Below, piece after piece: positions 52,737 through 59,233 of a stretch of DNA of 64,000 nt. Origin of the DNA: Candidatus Aenigmatarchaeota archaeon. Its GTDB lineage: Archaea > Aenigmatarchaeota > Aenigmatarchaeia > CG10238-14 > SpSt-28. A model generated the notes under the pieces. It made no database searches and was not told the origin of the DNA. It saw only the letters and a program-made list of their open reading frames with translations. Location of the stretch: positions 13,943 through 77,942 of the forward strand of contig JAVYPJ010000002.1 in the NCBI GenBank assembly GCA_038733315.1. The letters are read 5' to 3'. A program made the position numbers and the translations under genes. Numbering within the stretch: the first letter of the stretch is position 1; every line of letters begins with the position of its first letter.

Positions 52737-52901
52737 TTAAACCAAAAGAATTCTTAATAAAAGAACTAGGGTTCCAATTAAAACGGAAATTATTATAATA
52801 TGTTCAGCCTTTATTTTAATCTTAGCTTCTGGTTCTTCCTCTAAGAACATTAATCCTCCGTATCCGCTTGGCATCATGTATTTTTTGGGTTTTTTAACCA
52901 T
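52737..52901 (-). CDS. secG: preprotein translocase subunit Sec61beta
   Basis: Manual translation MVKKPKKYMMPSGYGGLMFLEEE..AKIKIKAEHIIIISVLIG... (54 aa). Confidence 0.85.
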   Translation of the reverse strand: MVKKPKKYMMPSGYGGLMFLEEEPEAKIKIKAEHIIIISVLIGTLVLLLRILLV

Positions 52902-52929
52902 AACTAATAATAACAAAAATAATCTTTAT

Positions 52930-54204
52930 ATGGAGATTGTAAGAAGATATTATTCTAATCAAAGAATATTAGATTTTTTGGTTGAATTCGCAAAAGATAG
53001 AGAGGTAGTTGCTGTTTATAAAGACGGTAAATACGGTAAAAGACCAGATATTTTACAATACTCTGGAGATATAATCTCAAAAGTAGAAGAGGGTGCTATA
53101 GCTTTTCACTGTAGCGCAGAAAAGTGGAAAAATCCGATGCAGTTAAGGGCGGGTATGACAAAGAAAGAATATGACGAACTAAGATTAGCATGGGATTTAG
53201 TTATAGATATAGATGTTAAGGATTTTGAAATAGCAAAATTAACAACAAAAGTTATAGCAGAATTTTTAAAAAGATATCAAGTAAAAAATCTATTGATTAA
53301 GTTTACTGGCGGGGATAGTTTTCACATATTAATTCCATCTAAAAGCTTTCCACCTTTTTTTAACAAAATTCCAATATCTCTACAATATGAAGAGCTAAGC
53401 AAAAAGATAATAGAGTTTATAAAAATTTCTGTAGAAGAGGAGCTAAAAAAACTTATGTTAGAGTTTTTCAATCCAAAAGATCTAGTAGAAAAGTTAGGAA
53501 AAAGACTTAGCGAGATTTCTGAGATAAAGCCATTTAGCTTTATTAATATCGATATTTTTGGAGTAAGACATTTATTTAGAATGCCGTATTCGTTACATGA
53601 AAAGACATTATTAGTTAGTCTGCCAATAGATCCAAAAGAAATCTTAAATTTTAGAAAAAGTGATGCAAATCCTGAAAATGTTGATTTTAATGAAAGCTTA
53701 GTCAGTTTTAAGTATGAAAATGATGCAAAATATCTTTTATTAGAAGCTTTTGAAAGAGTTAAATTAGAAATAGAAAAGGAGATAGAATATTTAAAAGAAA
53801 AAATAGACATAAAAGGCAAGAAAAAAATTCCAATAGAATTTTTTCCACCGTGCATAAAAACGATTTTAAATGGTTTAGAGGATGGAAGAAATAGAAGTAT
53901 ATTCGTTTTAATAACATTTCTTAGGAATGCCGGATATGAATGGGATGAGATAGATAAAATATTACACGAATGGAATGAAAAAAACAAACCTCCGCTAAGA
54001 GAAGGTATTATAAGAACTCAGTTAAGATGGCATATGAGACAAGAAAGAGACTTATTACCTCCTAATTGTGACCACTCAACATTTTATAAGGATTATAATG
54101 TTTGTAAACCAGATGAATTTTGCAAAACTATAAGAAATCCTTTATCTTATGCTCTAAAAAAATACCTCCAATCTAAAAAATCCACAAAAAAAGAAAGCCC
54201 TTAA
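52930..54204 (+). CDS. fused DNA primase (PriS-PriL)
   Basis: N-half WDLVIDID, KFTGG.SFH, RHLFRMPYSLHEKT; C-half FPPCI..IL.GL.DGR, PPNC, CKPDEFC...NPL. Start moved to ATG 52930. Confidence 0.92.
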   Translation: MEIVRRYYSNQRILDFLVEFAKDREVVAVYKDGKYGKRPDILQYSGDIISKVEEGAIAFHCSAEKWKNPMQLRAGMTKKEYDELRLAWDLVIDIDVKDFEIAKLTTKVIAEFLKRYQVKNLLIKFTGGDSFHILIPSKSFPPFFNKIPISLQYEELSKKIIEFIKISVEEELKKLMLEFFNPKDLVEKLGKRLSEISEIKPFSFINIDIFGVRHLFRMPYSLHEKTLLVSLPIDPKEILNFRKSDANPENVDFNESLVSFKYENDAKYLLLEAFERVKLEIEKEIEYLKEKIDIKGKKKIPIEFFPPCIKTILNGLEDGRNRSIFVLITFLRNAGYEWDEIDKILHEWNEKNKPPLREGIIRTQLRWHMRQERDLLPPNCDHSTFYKDYNVCKPDEFCKTIRNPLSYALKKYLQSKKSTKKESP

Positions 54205-54235
54205 TAAATTAATTTTTTAGGATTTTCTAAATAGT

Positions 54236-54385
54236 ATGGAGATTGTAACAACAACAATACCTTTAAATGTTAACATATATTCAGCAGCAATAATTTTACT
54301 TATTTTGATTATAATTTTTCTGCTAATAATGACATTAAAGACTAGAAGAGAATTACTAAAGAGAAAATATATAGAAATGCCCTAA
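54236..54385 (+). CDS. small single-TM protein (49 aa)
   Basis: Manual translation MEIVTTTIPLNVNIYSAAIILLILIIIFLLIMTLKTRRELLKRKYIEMP. Confidence 0.5.
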   Translation: MEIVTTTIPLNVNIYSAAIILLILIIIFLLIMTLKTRRELLKRKYIEMP

Positions 54386-54388
54386 CCT

Positions 54389-54814
54389 TTAGCTAGAACT
54401 CTTATAAACCTCATAAGCAATTCTATCTAAAAAACTAATTCCTTTATTAGTTAGCTTTCTACCCCTTTTCTCTATTTTTTCTACGAATCCAGCATTTTCT
54501 AACTGTTGTAGAATAGTTCTAATAATCTTACCACCAGCTTTTCTAAACTTTTCTCTTTTTCTTTTATGCTGTTTTCTTTTTCCATAATAAGTCCTCAATC
54601 TTCTAACACCAATTTCACCATCTATATATAATCTTCTTAAAATACTAGCAGCTCTAATATACCAAAAATCTTCTTGCTCTGGAGGTCTTTCGTTCGCACT
54701 CGATGATTTTGCAAACAATACCCATTTAGGAGGTTTAATTATATCTATTTTTTTCAACTCTTCTTTAAGCCTTTCTACGAATTTCTGCGGATCTACATCA
54801 TAAACGTTTACCAT
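54389..54814 (-). CDS. rps19e: 30S ribosomal protein S19e
   Basis: VYDV, PKW, ERPP...WYIRAASILRRLY, IRTILQQLE. Confidence 0.96.
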   Translation of the reverse strand: MVNVYDVDPQKFVERLKEELKKIDIIKPPKWVLFAKSSSANERPPEQEDFWYIRAASILRRLYIDGEIGVRRLRTYYGKRKQHKRKREKFRKAGGKIIRTILQQLENAGFVEKIEKRGRKLTNKGISFLDRIAYEVYKSSS

Positions 54815-54850
54815 AAAGAATATTTTTTAAAAAATATAAAGATTAATTTT

Positions 54851-55054
54851 ATGTCAATAGAAGAGGTAAAACAAAAAATATTAGAAATATTAAAGGCAAG
54901 GAGCGTAATAAGTAAAAGAGAACTTAGCACGTTAATAGAGAATAGGGATGAATTAGAAAAAGCAATATACGAGCTAATTTCTAACAACTTCATATTTGAA
55001 ATTAATGTATTAGGTGGTAATTATTATGGAATTAAAAACTCCAAAAATAAATAA
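54851..55054 (+). CDS. small winged-helix-like protein
   Basis: QKILEILK...ISKRELS...LEKAIYELISNNFI pattern. Confidence 0.6.
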   Translation: MSIEEVKQKILEILKARSVISKRELSTLIENRDELEKAIYELISNNFIFEINVLGGNYYGIKNSKNK

Positions 55055-55214
55055 AGATCAAGCAATCGCAGTGCTATTTATAATTTTGATTTTTATAGTT
55101 TTTCTTTTAGACGCCTCCACAACCAAAGTAAATTTATGTAAAATAAACGGAAACAGTACCCATCAAAATTGTATAACGCTGCCAATAAAAATATTCCCAT
55201 TTTTAAAAGAGTGA
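55026..55214 (+). CDS. small single-TM protein
   Basis: Hydrophobic helix followed by a C-x9-C segment. Confidence 0.5.
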   Translation: MELKTPKINKDQAIAVLFIILIFIVFLLDASTTKVNLCKINGNSTHQNCITLPIKIFPFLKE

Positions 55215-55358
55215 GATTTTAAATTTTTTTATCACTATATGGTGGATTAGCTAATCTAAAAGAAATATTAGAAATATAACGATAAAAAAACTGAAATTTC
55301 TTTACAGCTATAAACTAAGCTTAAAATCTATATATCCACTTGGCGCATTTTAATAAAT

Positions 55359-55649
55359 ATGGAAAATAAAAGGAAGGATGAGCTAGAAAATGTACTAAAA
55401 ATTCTTTTAGTTTTGAAAAAAATAAATGGATGGATATGGCTAAGAGAATTAGCAAGGAGAACCAAATTACATCATAAAACCGTTTCTAGACTTTTATACA
55501 AATATTTTCAACCCTTTATAGAAGAGCAAAAACTTTTACCTTTTAGGGCAAGGCTTATAAGGCTAAAAGAAGATATTAACATAGAAAAGTTTATAGCTTT
55601 TTGGAAAATAAAAAAATTGCAAGAAATATATGATAAGAAGTTCAAATAA
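55359..55649 (+). CDS. helix-turn-helix DNA-binding protein
   Basis: WIWLRELARRTKLHHKTVSRLL. Confidence 0.75.
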   Translation: MENKRKDELENVLKILLVLKKINGWIWLRELARRTKLHHKTVSRLLYKYFQPFIEEQKLLPFRARLIRLKEDINIEKFIAFWKIKKLQEIYDKKFK

Positions 55650-55651
55650 TT

Positions 55652-56272
55652 ATGGGAGTTTTTGATAGTTTAAAAAAATTATTTAAAAGAAAATCTCAAC
55701 TGGAATTATTACAAGCTGAAGAAAAAAACGAGAGCGAAACTGTAGAAAGTGATGTAGAAACTCAAAAAATAGAAAACGATGCTAAGGAAATAGAAAGAGA
55801 GTTCTATAGTTATGAGCAGGTAATAGATAAAAATTTTGTATATGGGTATATTTTGAAAACTCTAAAATCCATTGAGGAATCTCTAAAAAGAATCGAGTAT
55901 AATATGATAACTAAGGATTGGGCTTCCTTAAATTTAACAGAAAAGAAGGATTTAGAAAATCTTATAAACAAGCTAAATGAAAAAATAGAATATACTAGGA
56001 TACTTTTACCTGCTTCAAGCGCTTTAAGCAGATCAAGCAATAGATTAAATGAAATTATAAGAAAAGCAGCTGAAATAATAAGAAGCAGAAAAGAAATTAG
56101 CTATGAAGATTTGGCCAAGGAGTTAGGAATTTCTAGTAGTTACTTAAGAGCCATAGCAAATTTAATAGAAATAAATAATAATGATATTAAGCGGATAATA
56201 AAAGACAAAAAAGGTTTTTTTGTTTGTGATTTTAGCAATACAGGTGAAAAAGATAAGAACGCAACTGCTTAA
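55652..56272 (+). CDS. amphipathic-helix / coiled-coil / C-terminal HTH protein
   Basis: MGVFDSLKKLFKRK N-terminus, acidic linker, heptads, ISYEDLAKELGISSSYLRAI HTH. Confidence 0.75.
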   Translation: MGVFDSLKKLFKRKSQLELLQAEEKNESETVESDVETQKIENDAKEIEREFYSYEQVIDKNFVYGYILKTLKSIEESLKRIEYNMITKDWASLNLTEKKDLENLINKLNEKIEYTRILLPASSALSRSSNRLNEIIRKAAEIIRSRKEISYEDLAKELGISSSYLRAIANLIEINNNDIKRIIKDKKGFFVCDFSNTGEKDKNATA

Positions 56273-56499
56273 GCTGCTCAAGCAATTCAAGCAGGTAAAT
56301 TAAGCTATTGGCCTTAGAGATCTGAACTGCTTAAGCTGCTTAAGCAGATTAATGCATATGATTAGATAAAAAAAATATCAGGATTGTGTTTTAGTGATCT
56401 GCTGCTTAAGCAGTTCAAGCAGTTGAATCAAAAGTGTTGATGATCTGCTGCTTGTGCTTACAAGCGCTTGAAGCGCTTCAAGCAGTTCAAGCAGTTGAA
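56262..56499. repeat. clusters of 9-bp-period TT(C/T)AAGCAG / CTGCTTAAG repeats
   Basis: Four clusters at 56262-56294, 56319-56347, 56395-56427 and 56441-56499; core palindrome CTGCTTAAGCAG. Confidence 0.9.
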
Positions 56500-57417
56500 A
56501 TTTTTAACATTTTTTGAGAATTCTGAAGTACTCTCGTTAAATATTTTAACTTCTCTGTTGTCACTAAATTATTTAAAAACCCTCACATTTATAGCATGGA
56601 CATTAGTTAGAATTTATAACATCTACTTTAAATCTGCCTTTATTTTTACTCTCTCACACTTCTGGCATTCGTTAATTAGGAGTGCTTTCATAACTCTCAC
56701 GCATTTATAAAATTTTGTATAAACTCTCACATTTCAGTTTTAATTTTTTAGTTTTTACCTTTCTCACATTTTTAAACTCTGGATTATATGGTATATCTTA
56801 ACCACTTTTTAGAGGTTATATAATTTTAAATCTCTCACATTCATGGCTTTAATTTGTTTAACTACTCATAAATAAATAGTAGATATCATTTTATCTATTT
56901 ATTAGTAATATTTTATTTAACGAAAAAAATGCATCATTATAGTATTTAAATTCGATTTTTTGGAAATATACACTTTTTTATATATATTTTTTTGTACTGG
57001 TCACTCTATAGTAGATACTAAATAGTAAATTTTTAGGTTGTTTTTTACAGATTTTTTAGTAAAAAACCTTCTTTAAACCTTTTTTATGCTGAAAAAACTT
57101 GATTTTTAGCAGATAAATCACAAAAAAATCTACGGATAGCCTAACGAAGGCAAAAAATACCCTAAAAAAATTTATAGCTGGCTTACTAGGCCAGTTATAA
57201 TTTTTGAAGTTTCGATTGTATGTGAGGGTTTTTAAATTTTTGTAGTCATTATTAGGTAGATAAAAATTTATTAGGTTTAAACTAGCTTAAATAAAGAAAA
57301 TTGTGTAGTTTGTTAAGCGGTTTTAAGCGGTTTGTAATGCAGTTGTTTTTAATGTCATATAGCCAGCTGGTGCATTTTATTATAGCTAAAATCTATAACT
57401 TTAAATTTTTAACAAAC
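56273..57417. other. putative replication origin / centromere-like locus
   Basis: Only long non-coding stretch in the window; iterons, inverted repeat, AT-rich core and phased A-tracts. Function is inferred. Confidence 0.55.
56571..57237. repeat. CTCAC(AT) iteron array and 18-bp inverted repeat bracketing an AT-rich core
   Basis: CTCAC at 56582, 56653, 56696, 56726, 56763, 56834; ATTTAAAAACCCTCACAT (56571-56588) inverted at 57220-57237. Confidence 0.85.
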
Positions 57418-58150
57418 TTAGCTGAGCTGAGACCTAATTTTAGAAGTCCGTATAAAGTTTTTTTCAAAACTCATCAGAATTTTTTGATAGTGTGGCGTCG
57501 CTTTTTTTATTAAATTTTCTAAACTTTTCGAGTCTTCAAGAATGAATAGCGAGGCATTATTAAGATGTTCTTTGTTAATCCATTTTCCGTATCCAAGCGA
57601 TAATAGTATTTTTTCTACCCACATTTTATACTTCTCTAATCTTCTATCTCTTTCAATAAGCTCTTTCTCTCTCGGATCTTTTGCAAAGGTATAAACTATT
57701 TTATCTTTATATTCCTTTAGTATTTTTTGGCAACCTTCATATATTCTCTCCATATGCCACTCGTTAGATACAATAGATATATAATGAATTTGTCCATATA
57801 TGCTGGAAAGTAGGTGCAACGTCATTTTAGTGTAATAGAGATTAGATAGGGTACTATATGACGCGTTTTCAATAATAATATCGCTTGGATGTATTCCTTT
57901 TTCTTCTAAATATGAGGATTTAATAAAAGAAATATTAGAAAAAATTAGCAATATAGGGAGCTTCGTTTTTTCCACAAGCTATTATTTTAATAATAATTTC
58001 TTTTTCCCCATATAACTTATTGCATAAGTCAGAAACCTTTAACTTCGTGAATAAATCAAAAGCCTTATCTGCTCTAGCTTTTGTATGTGGTTGTAAAGTT
58101 CCATCTGGATTTATTCCAGCACCATGGATTACTATTGCTGCAACTCCCAT
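57418..58150 (-). pseudogene. YdcF/DUF218 (SanA/ElyC-like) gene interrupted by a frameshift
   Basis: ORF 57935-58150 (AIVIHGAG...KARADKA..L...IIACG..EA) continues in ORF 57418-57975 (YLEEKGI....IIIENASYSTLSN...IVSNEWHMER). Confidence 0.72.
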
Positions 58151-58247
58151 AAACTATTATTAAAATATATAAGTAATAGTTAAAAATATCTTTATTAAGT
58201 AGTAAATTTTTTGTAAAAATTTATTTTATTTGGAGAAATGCTTATTT

Positions 58248-58535
58248 ATGAAATCTACTCTTTCTAAGATTATCGATTTACTTAAGGAAAGGGACTACTC
58301 CTTTTCTGAATTATTAGAAATCTTTGGAGAGCAAAATTTATCAAGAAAGGAACTAAAAGAAATTATTGATAGAATAGTTAAAATTTCTAAACACGCGTCT
58401 TGGAAGTTTTATTATAGTCCAGCAAAATGTAGAGAATGTGGTTATGAGGTTAAAAATTATAAACCTATAACTAAATGCCCTAAATGTAAAACCGAAAAAA
58501 TAAAAGATCCAAGATATATTATAAAAACAGAATAA
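58248..58535 (+). CDS. HTH plus zinc-ribbon transcriptional regulator
   Basis: KIIDLLKE...ELLE N-terminus; PAKCRECGY...KCPKCKTEKI..PRY. Confidence 0.8.
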   Translation: MKSTLSKIIDLLKERDYSFSELLEIFGEQNLSRKELKEIIDRIVKISKHASWKFYYSPAKCRECGYEVKNYKPITKCPKCKTEKIKDPRYIIKTE

Positions 58536-58603
58536 CTCTCTCACTGTAAATTTAATCAAAACAATGTAAAGGAAATTTTAATAAGGAATTTAAATATTAT
58601 TTT

Positions 58604-59233
58604 ATGATAGAGAAATTTAATCAAATAAAAGCAGCAATGTTATTAAGGAAGCTGGCTAACGATGAAATATCAACAGAAGAATTAGTGAGATTCAGTAAAA
58701 AAGAGGGAATAATAATTTTTGATATAATAAAATGCATGCCACTAAAAGAAACCGGTCTCGGACTTTTAATAAAGGGATTAATAGATCTTCACGGTCCAGG
58801 CGTCATAAGAACCATGAGAATGGCTTTCAAAAGCGACGGCTACAATGATGCAAAGGAAGCATTAAAGATAGTGGGCAAAGAAAAGGCCTATAAGTTAATT
58901 AATTTCTGGACTGAATTGGGATATATTGAAAAACTTATAGAGATAAAGATTGGTAAAAACGGTGACTTAAAGAATACTGAATTAAACGAAAATTTCTATA
59001 AAGAATTTGTTGAAAGTGGATATAATACGATTATAGTCAGAGTAAAAGGTTCATTTAGCTCTTCAGGGTATAAAACAGTCGCTGGAAAATCGAATTTTCC
59101 TATATGTGTTATAGAGCCCGCGTATATAGCTGGCTTTATAGAGGCTACATTTGATAGAAGATGTGATGTAGATGAAACTAAATGTGAAGCCACTGGTGAT
59201 GAGTATTGTGAATACGTGTTTACACTAATCTAA
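58604..59233 (+). CDS. V4R (4VR) domain protein
   Basis: ELGY, PIC....AYIAGFIE...C.VDETKCEATGDEYCEYVF. Confidence 0.85.
   Translation: MIEKFNQIKAAMLLRKLANDEISTEELVRFSKKEGIIIFDIIKCMPLKETGLGLLIKGLIDLHGPGVIRTMRMAFKSDGYNDAKEALKIVGKEKAYKLINFWTELGYIEKLIEIKIGKNGDLKNTELNENFYKEFVESGYNTIIVRVKGSFSSSGYKTVAGKSNFPICVIEPAYIAGFIEATFDRRCDVDETKCEATGDEYCEYVFTLI

Follow-up and report, generated by a model that had tools for sequence, protein, structure and literature searches.

What does a small winged-helix protein do when its gene stands beside a cluster of short palindromes? The question is raised by an open reading frame (ORF) at 55652-56272 of a stretch of 64,000 nucleotides (hereafter the window; contig C2 13943-77942) from a 733 kb genome of seven contigs and ~28% G+C. 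An earlier, sequence-only reading proposed that its product, here called F0, tethers DNA to the membrane by means of an N-terminal helix and a C-terminal helix-turn-helix (HTH) that binds the adjoining repeats. We tentatively favour the same answer, at a probability of roughly 45%: F0 may be a DNA-to-membrane tether that acts on its own locus, like Noc, RocS or RicO. New here are palindrome arrays, spaced one DNA turn apart, within the codons of the F0 linkers and just past the stop codon. The in-gene sites in relatives, a partner gene (F1) and a second repeat family are additions to what had been noticed before. A literature search, supplementary files excepted, found no description of the F0 family or of in-linker site arrays.

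The ORF was confirmed and is divided as follows:

55652-56272, plus strand: F0, the protein under study, 206 aa, ATG start, stop codon included.
55655-55693, plus strand: F0 codons 2-14, N-terminal amphipathic basic helix, a putative membrane-targeting sequence.
55694-55825, plus strand: F0 codons 15-58, acidic disordered linker 1, which bears a palindrome array in most relatives and lacks one in the window's genus.
55826-56005, plus strand: F0 codons 59-118, conserved helical domain, possibly for dimerisation, with the motif LGxAAGYTGRSLxxIExSLxRIExxMxTKDW.
56039-56236, plus strand: F0 codons 130-195, winged helix-turn-helix, with residues 162-175 as recognition helix.

The AlphaFold model of F0, built from a 78-row alignment, has a mean predicted local distance difference test score (pLDDT) of 80. 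Most of the proposed layout is borne out by it and by composition. The N-terminus, MGVFDSLKKLFKRK, has five K/R and one D/E and is modelled as a helix over residues 3-21, with residues 1-10 at pLDDT 81. Linker residues 15-58 are indeed acidic (14 D/E, 4 K/R) and of low pLDDT, with low confidence from about residue 23 to 58. The segment described as a coiled-coil region is predicted to hold helices 60-84, 88-96 and 98-117 at pLDDT 88-96; it stands as a helical domain, a canonical coiled coil not being demonstrated. The C-terminal HTH was retrieved as a confident predicted winged helix (pLDDT 96-98), in which helix 123-146 and strand 148-150 precede helices 151-158 and 162-175, with two strands, 179-184 and 187-192, at the end.

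The N-terminal helix is conserved. Its residues 3-13 show a helical hydrophobic moment of 0.81 and a net charge of +4, and the moment ranks first of 704 among the ATG-initiated ORFs of at least 100 aa in the genome. Conservation was determined for 78 F0 representatives, 68 of which have a canonical start. Among these 68, positions 3, 4, 7, 10 and 11 are hydrophobic in 68, 54, 65, 65 and 61, positions 8, 9, 13 and 14 are basic in 45, 47, 50 and 44, and position 5 is acidic in 44; counted over all 78, position 3 is hydrophobic in 68. A strict rule (moment of at least 0.55 and net charge of at least +2) selected 62 of the 78, and several of the 16 others look as if the gene had been called too short or too long. 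At the N-terminus the best moment has a median of 0.70, versus 0.48 in the linker. Loss of the helix among homologues had been named as grounds for giving up the tether; since the helix is kept across the family, these grounds do not apply, and F0 has the conserved terminal amphipathic helix that characterizes the tether class. Its motif, which we take to resemble the membrane-targeting sequences of MinE and MinD, may bind membrane.

An exhaustive profile search identified 88 F0 representatives at E <= 1e-3, 50 of them at E <= 1e-10. The nine close homologues carry the label Candidatus Aenigmatarchaeota from their sources. Matches occur in 78 of the 371 genomes of the phylum, mainly in one order, usually with one or two match rows per genome; by taxonomic family the counts are 15/18 (f1), 51/70 (f6), 3/3 (f4), 1/1 (f2) and 1/23 (f3). 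Six matches labelled as of the same class are weak and comprise the HTH part only. Pfam yields weak HTH matches to F0, all under the curated cut-off, and across the 78 members at E <= 0.01 it finds HTH_24 in 28, HTH_Mga in 25 and MarR in 2. No ParBc or ParB HTH was found in F0 by Pfam at E <= 0.1, and ParB domains are absent from the 25 most-matched of the 61 Pfam families across the 78 members (E <= 0.01). Foldseek searches of PDB with two F0 models gave nothing at E <= 0.001, only winged-helix matches with best E-values of 0.012 and 4.7e-3, the latter spanning the winged helix alone. In profile searches of PDB the helical domain weakly resembles the corresponding helical portion of MJ223 (1ku9; E 0.03 and 9e-4); beyond this match, these searches and the ESM Atlas gave nothing for F0 but generic winged-helix likeness. 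The likeness would then be that of a generic winged-helix fold and not of membership in a MarR-, ArsR- or TrmB-type family; F0 appears to found an unnamed family that has no Pfam model and is restricted to one order of Aenigmatarchaeota (DPANN).

F0 stands among genes of a housekeeping kind, namely MetAP, rhomboid, GluRS, SAM synthetase, PolB and Memo. Since F0 is found order-wide, mostly with one or two rows per genome and among such neighbours, it is probably a vertically inherited core gene of its order. A mobile element or plasmid remnant was ruled out on the same grounds, F0 being near single-copy, order-wide and amid housekeeping genes. All 12 DNA sequencing runs that contain the stretch of the locus are hot-spring metagenomes, no RNA run appears among the runs listed, and the whole 2.2 kb is also present in contigs of two other studies with 48-50 differences, a comparison that speaks to presence only.

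Some F0 members are longer. Ten of these longer members, out of the 88 representatives, were inspected (P0011, P0019, P0030, P0038, P0049, P0060, P0067, P0068, P0073 and P0077), and all ten have a C-terminal extension of ~130 aa with the pattern D...ExK...GQLxxAK. By this pattern the extension looks like a PD-(D/E)xK (Hjc/RecB-like) nuclease; its matches are weak (XisH and AHJR-like, E ~0.003-0.01; Hjc 1gef, E 0.9).

The palindromes were studied in 67 non-redundant F0 loci, three fragmentary loci and duplicates having been dropped. By site, 26 loci are of the AAGC class (AGCGCT/GCTTAAGC), 24 of the AATC class (ATCGAT/AATCAATC) and 17 are classed as other. The variable linkers of relatives bear peptide repeats such as ALQS, RFKALQS, INQS and IDS, which are translated short DNA palindromes: AAGCGCTT in the 10-nt unit AAAGCGCTTC, GAATCGATTC and the (AATC)n type, besides hybrids such as AAGCGATT. 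The linker peptides ALQS, INQS and IDS thus look repetitive because in-gene palindrome arrays encode them. Overall the arrays are composed of AAGCGCTT, GCTTAAGC, ATCGAT and lineage-private variants. Of the hexamers counted in the 50 classed loci, 217 are inside the gene, 33 past the stop and 3 ahead of the start. Their spacings peak at 10 nt (62 cases, with 14 at 9 nt and 13 at 11 nt), followed by 20-21 nt (31) and 30-32 nt (9), and all three reading frames are used (60/50/107). Phasing by DNA turn rather than by codon, with frame changes between copies, argues that selection acts on the nucleic acid and that the disordered peptide follows. Coding sequence would here be moulded by a DNA-binding code.

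Arrays of this kind are concentrated at F0. Hexamer density in the gene plus 300 nt is 4.30/kb versus 0.15/kb elsewhere in 21 loci of 10-20 kb, a difference of ~29-fold. Of GC-containing 7-mers, the commonest one is present in F0 in a median of 7 copies, with at least 5 in 48 of the 67 loci; in 149 neighbouring genes, taken as control, the top 7-mer has a median of 3 and reaches 5 in two. The places of the arrays are fixed, namely linker 1 (nt ~15-200), linker 2 (nt ~340-470) and the 3' end or just beyond the stop, and most loci of the other class show a private repeat in these same places.

In the window, the repeats that had been seen adjoining the gene are present:

56012-56044, unstranded: in-gene AAGC repeat, three AAGC at a 9-nt period, coding for 'ASSALSRSS' of linker 2.
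56264-56503, unstranded: four clusters of AAGC/GCTT palindromic repeats with a 9-nt period (CTGCTTAAGCAG, TTCAAGCGCTTGAAGCGCTTCAAGCAG and others), beginning at the F0 stop codon.

The ASSALSRSS stretch is invariant in close F0 homologues. These palindromes form the single cluster of the 733-kb genome: of 92 pattern matches, 15 lie within 1 kb, and two is the most that any other 500-nt bin contains. Four of the six genomic copies of TTCAAGCAG and seven of the 23 copies of TTAAGCAG are in the 2.5 kb of the locus. Outside it the 733 kb contain nine copies of GCTTAAGC and seven of AAGCGCTT, where a rough composition-based expectation is ~5. Rfam found no credible family at 54000-59000 (best E 0.035, under the gathering score), and no tRNA was found near the locus.

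Which protein reads the palindromes? The candidates at the locus are F0 and F1, the 96-aa winged-helix protein encoded just upstream. The recognition helix of F0 starts at residues 162-164, which are SSY here and of the E/D type in relatives with AATC-class sites. A D, E, N or Q within three residues ahead of the conserved LR of this helix is found in 23 of the 24 AATC-class loci and in 3 of the 26 AAGC-class loci. The identical F1 helix LHHKTVSR is found with both site classes (16 and 8 loci). This suggests that F0, rather than F1, reads the palindromes. A complex prediction of F0 residues 58-206 with F1 scored 0.00, which carries no weight either way.

The proposed mechanism is as follows. 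The C-terminal winged helix would read the short palindromes, and F0 would probably do so as a dimer, its two copies joined by way of the conserved helical domain. Since the palindromes are spaced one DNA turn apart, many F0 copies could load on a single face of the DNA in and beside the gene, giving rise to a compact nucleoprotein complex. The N-terminal amphipathic basic helix of each copy, borne by a flexible acidic linker, would insert into the membrane, and many such weak helices might jointly hold the complex at the cell periphery. The role would be the positioning or segregation of the locus, perhaps with autoregulation.

Several observations weigh against the tether. The palindrome arrays could act in mRNA. 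In the window's own genus they have a 9-nt period and lie mainly outside the gene, so the picture of in-gene arrays at 10 nt derives from relatives. The loose pattern TTNAAGC is not enriched window-wide, with 55 found versus 94 expected; being too loose, it was replaced by 8- and 9-mers. In 11 of the 67 loci no GC-containing 7-mer reaches four copies. Conservation of the N-terminal motif extends to single residues (G2, D5, F11), which also fits a specific protein partner, for instance a ParA/MinD-like ATPase. The link between recognition helix and site weakens once relatedness is allowed for. On the best tree, built without the recognition-helix columns (162-164), site class changes at least 15 times (AAGC 9, AATC 8), of which well-supported branches force two; the link amounts to two independent contrasts on well-supported branches (seven on the best tree), and a phylogenetically corrected sign test is not significant (p ~0.5). 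With two well-supported contrasts only, the association is suggestive, not proven. The sequence-only reading had staked its case on helix conservation and on binding of the local repeats by the HTH. The helix is conserved, and the repeats are placed at the gene and partition with the recognition helix before correction, though not significantly after it. The proposal is in this sense partly supported in silico; membrane binding, DNA binding and dimerisation are what we infer from it.

Known systems offer likenesses and differences. Noc of Bacillus subtilis reportedly recruits DNA to the membrane by an N-terminal amphipathic helix and site-specific DNA binding, many weak helices cooperating (PMC4331003). 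F0 also pairs an N-terminal amphipathic helix with a putative DNA-binding domain; in contrast, Noc belongs to the ParB family and has sites scattered over the chromosome, whereas F0 has no ParB domain and combines a C-terminal winged helix with sites gathered in one cluster where its own gene lies. A Noc-like nucleoid occlusion factor was rejected because the F0 sites are not dispersed, isolated 8-mers elsewhere being near chance. RicO of Staphylococcus aureus bridges a chromosome region to the membrane by a DNA-binding domain, a helical/coiled-coil part and an amphipathic helix, using nine dispersed 18-bp non-palindromic sites across ~700 kb (10.64898/2026.03.06.710092). RocS of S. pneumoniae is described as a DNA-membrane bridge of the same kind (10.1101/359943). 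F0 shares with both a layout lacking an adjacent ParA; these bacterial proteins have the DNA-binding domain N-terminal and the helix C-terminal, whereas the order in F0 is reversed, a comparison by description only.

Among archaea, the accounts of three Haloferax proteins describe membrane binding by an amphipathic helix located at the very N-terminus of CdpC (10.64898/2026.07.16.738847), ArcoA (10.64898/2026.07.23.738820) and DipA (PMC13228585). CdpC is built as F0 is, from a helix, a long disordered linker and a binding domain. The three differ from F0 in that they serve FtsZ or a GTPase cycle, not DNA, and consist of zinc-ribbon or GTPase folds with no similarity to F0.

Adaptors of plasmid and chromosomal centromeres with iterated sites at or in their own operon are a further comparison: ParR-parC, parS inside the spo0J/parB gene, archaeal SegB and AspA of pNOB8. 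Such adaptors are small dimeric DNA binders with short phased repeat arrays; they probably autoregulate, and the protein evolves quickly together with its site; they have ribbon-helix-helix or ParB folds and an adjacent NTPase (ParA, ParM or SegA). F0 differs as a member of another, winged-helix family with no adjacent NTPase found in 21 loci. To our knowledge, no centromere-binding system has arrays that extend, using all three frames, over the codons of disordered linkers.

The first alternative to be weighed is that F0 and F1 are ordinary autoregulated transcription factors, for which the repeats are operators and the helix a means of sequestration or sensing at the membrane. It bears on the remainder of the locus:

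55359-55649, plus strand: F1, 96-aa winged-helix protein with helix LHHKTVSR; its stop is 3 nt ahead of the F0 start; generic HTH Pfam matches only.
56582-56840, plus strand: six direct CTCACRY boxes, with the family consensus AAWGTGAGAGTT on the opposite strand, directed at the palindrome array.
56860-57170, unstranded: A+T-rich spacer, with a genus-conserved block at ~56966-57005.
57171-57205, unstranded: conserved hairpin or palindrome, TATAGCTGGC, 6-7 nt and GCCAGTTATA, flanked by an A-run and a T-run.
57220-57226, minus strand: inverted CTCACAT box, beyond the spacer.

In 63 of the 67 loci an F1 homologue is no more than 1.5 kb from F0, with varying orientation, upstream and co-directional in the window's genus and elsewhere mostly downstream and convergent. 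In some lineages F1 has ~273-287 aa, with an additional N-terminal domain and two tandem winged-helix copies (L022, L026, L028, L042, L043, L044, L050, L070 and L071). Seven of the ten CTCACRY matches in the window fall within 56582-57226. The boxes were counted upstream of F0 in 56 loci, excluding seven of the window's own family and four with less than 350 nt of flank: AAWGTGAGAGTT/AWGTGAG occurs at -400 to -1 in 141 sense copies and one antisense copy, at least two in 42 of the 56 loci, where the background is 46 copies in 173.5 kb. The boxes favour positions around -24, -50 and -76 relative to where F0 starts. In the window's genus the boxes sit downstream of F0, still oriented toward the palindrome array. 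A covariation check found that they persist where the F1 recognition helix varies, so their binder may be F1, Orc1/Cdc6 or another protein.

At these favoured positions the boxes of most lineages would overlap an archaeal promoter; a box is often found upstream of F1 as well, and both proteins are small and winged-helix, all as expected of a regulator pair. Operators, however, do not normally come as 10-20 phased copies through a coding sequence and beyond its stop. No regulon is visible either, lone palindromes elsewhere occurring at the near-chance numbers given above, and the 0.5-1.1 kb of non-coding DNA beside the genes would be left without explanation. We consider a transcription factor pair unlikely.

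Quite unlikely, in our judgement, is that F0 serves as the centromere-binding adaptor of a ParA/MinD partition system whose ATPase is encoded elsewhere, the helix being an ATPase-stimulating peptide. A basic N-terminal peptide on a flexible linker is the usual signature of a ParA partner, the motif is conserved residue by residue, and one site cluster is centromere-like. The genome also has five ParA/MinD-like genes of ~250 aa. All five, however, are on a contig other than that of F0, in agreement with the earlier statement that no ParA or SegA gene is nearby. A tblastn search (E <= 1e-5) with these five proteins and Cdc6 of the same genome gave no match in the 21 F0 loci of 10-20 kb; partition ATPases normally adjoin their adaptor, and the Walker-type ATPase gene expected of ParA-type partition is absent next to F0 in these loci. 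The strong Phe/Leu/Ile amphipathic face, first of 704, would moreover be superfluous for stimulating an ATPase.

The adjacent non-coding region might instead be the replication origin, with F0 and/or F1 as origin-binding factors and the AWGTGAG boxes as origin recognition boxes (ORBs). This is compatible with the tether if F0 anchors the origin; taken as the explanation of the locus, we rate it improbable. An archaeal origin usually adjoins orc1/cdc6 and has an A+T-rich unwinding element between ORB repeats. The single orc1/cdc6 is at C2:91483-92457, outside the window and 21 kb from F0. It is tightly packed, with no adjoining repeat-bearing non-coding DNA here and in four relatives (L092-L095), so that a usual cdc6-adjacent origin seems not to be evident in the five genomes checked and the F0 region becomes the best origin candidate by elimination. 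Most loci have, beside F0, an ORF-free stretch of 0.5-1.1 kb, a large gap that is kept across the order. In the window it covers 56273-57417, the third largest of the genome behind a 3.4-kb stretch on a small contig and the array of clustered regularly interspaced short palindromic repeats (CRISPR), and among the 20 largest gaps it is the sole one with an 8-mer in at least five copies. Besides directional boxes it contains a spacer rich in A+T, a box in inverted orientation and a hairpin that is conserved. Replication genes occur nearby, with PolB in 6 of the 21 larger loci (Pfam identification on one member) and a primase 1.4 kb upstream of the module in the window: the 442-aa ORF at 52876-54204, which matches PF01896 over residues 110-252 and PF04104 over residues 281-419, appears to be a fused PriS-PriL primase. 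Against an origin, the boxes do not appear to resemble the ORB consensus. The distance from F0 to cdc6 is not conserved, being 66-197 kb in the four relatives that have both on one contig, and in contigs C1 and C2 the GC skew goes with gene strand and offers no sign of an origin.

That the palindromes act in RNA, pairing of 5'-coding and 3' ends of the mRNA controlling translation or stability with the peptide repeats as a by-product, is very improbable: any copy can pair with any other and the same top 7-mer is at both ends (first 260 nt and 3' end of the transcript region) in 36 of the 67 loci, but RNA pairing has no need of phasing at 10, 20 and 30 nt, the association with the recognition helix points to protein-DNA reading, and the nuclease-like extension of the longer F0 members points to DNA rather than RNA.

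Archaeal chromosome organisation and segregation are largely open, above all in ultra-small DPANN cells that lack most of the known machinery, and the F0 locus offers the most promising clue to where these genomes have their origin, as yet unmapped. If the tether is right, archaea would have in F0 their first counterpart of the bacterial Noc/RocS/RicO bridge between DNA and membrane, in a compact module made up of a protein of 206 aa, a site array of 240 bp and a helix of 14 residues. The in-gene arrays would be a clear natural case of protein-coding sequence shaped by a DNA-binding code. A wider version, which we hold to be doubtful, makes the F0/F1 locus the chromosome's centromere and/or an origin uncoupled from cdc6, and F0 an ATPase-free membrane anchor with sites dual-coded in its own linkers; F0 would then be the first archaeal origin- or centromere-to-membrane anchor without a dedicated ATPase. 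On this version, DNA-site selection would dictate peptide in the disordered linkers at a one-turn phase, and newly made F0 could load in cis on its own gene, protein and sites co-evolving as a private pair.

Some minor features of the locus complete the description. The hairpin (CTGGC, 6-7 nt, GCCAG, with an extended stem) recurs in the F0-side non-coding region of other genera, where stem letters change and pairing is kept (L006, L009, L012, L019, L027 and the larger loci in which these copies recur); it might serve as a terminator in both directions, as a protein site or as an element of an origin. The module of F1, F0 and repeats lies between the two copies, at 55330-55355 and 57357-57382, of a direct repeat of 26 nt (81% identity, core CCAnnTGGnGCATTTTA). 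Its first copy is just upstream of the F1 start; the core CCAnnTGG of the second aligns in five relatives of the genus and is shortened in two. Two small overlapping ORFs upstream of F1 (54851-55054 and 55014-55214), of 67 aa with a weak HTH_24 match and of 66 hydrophobic aa, are kept in the four closest relatives of the genus (L002-L005). A variant box, AGAGTGAGA, is located at ~55208-55216. The CRISPR array, at C1:254569-257106 and outside the window, has repeats of ~30 nt with a period of ~66-67 nt.

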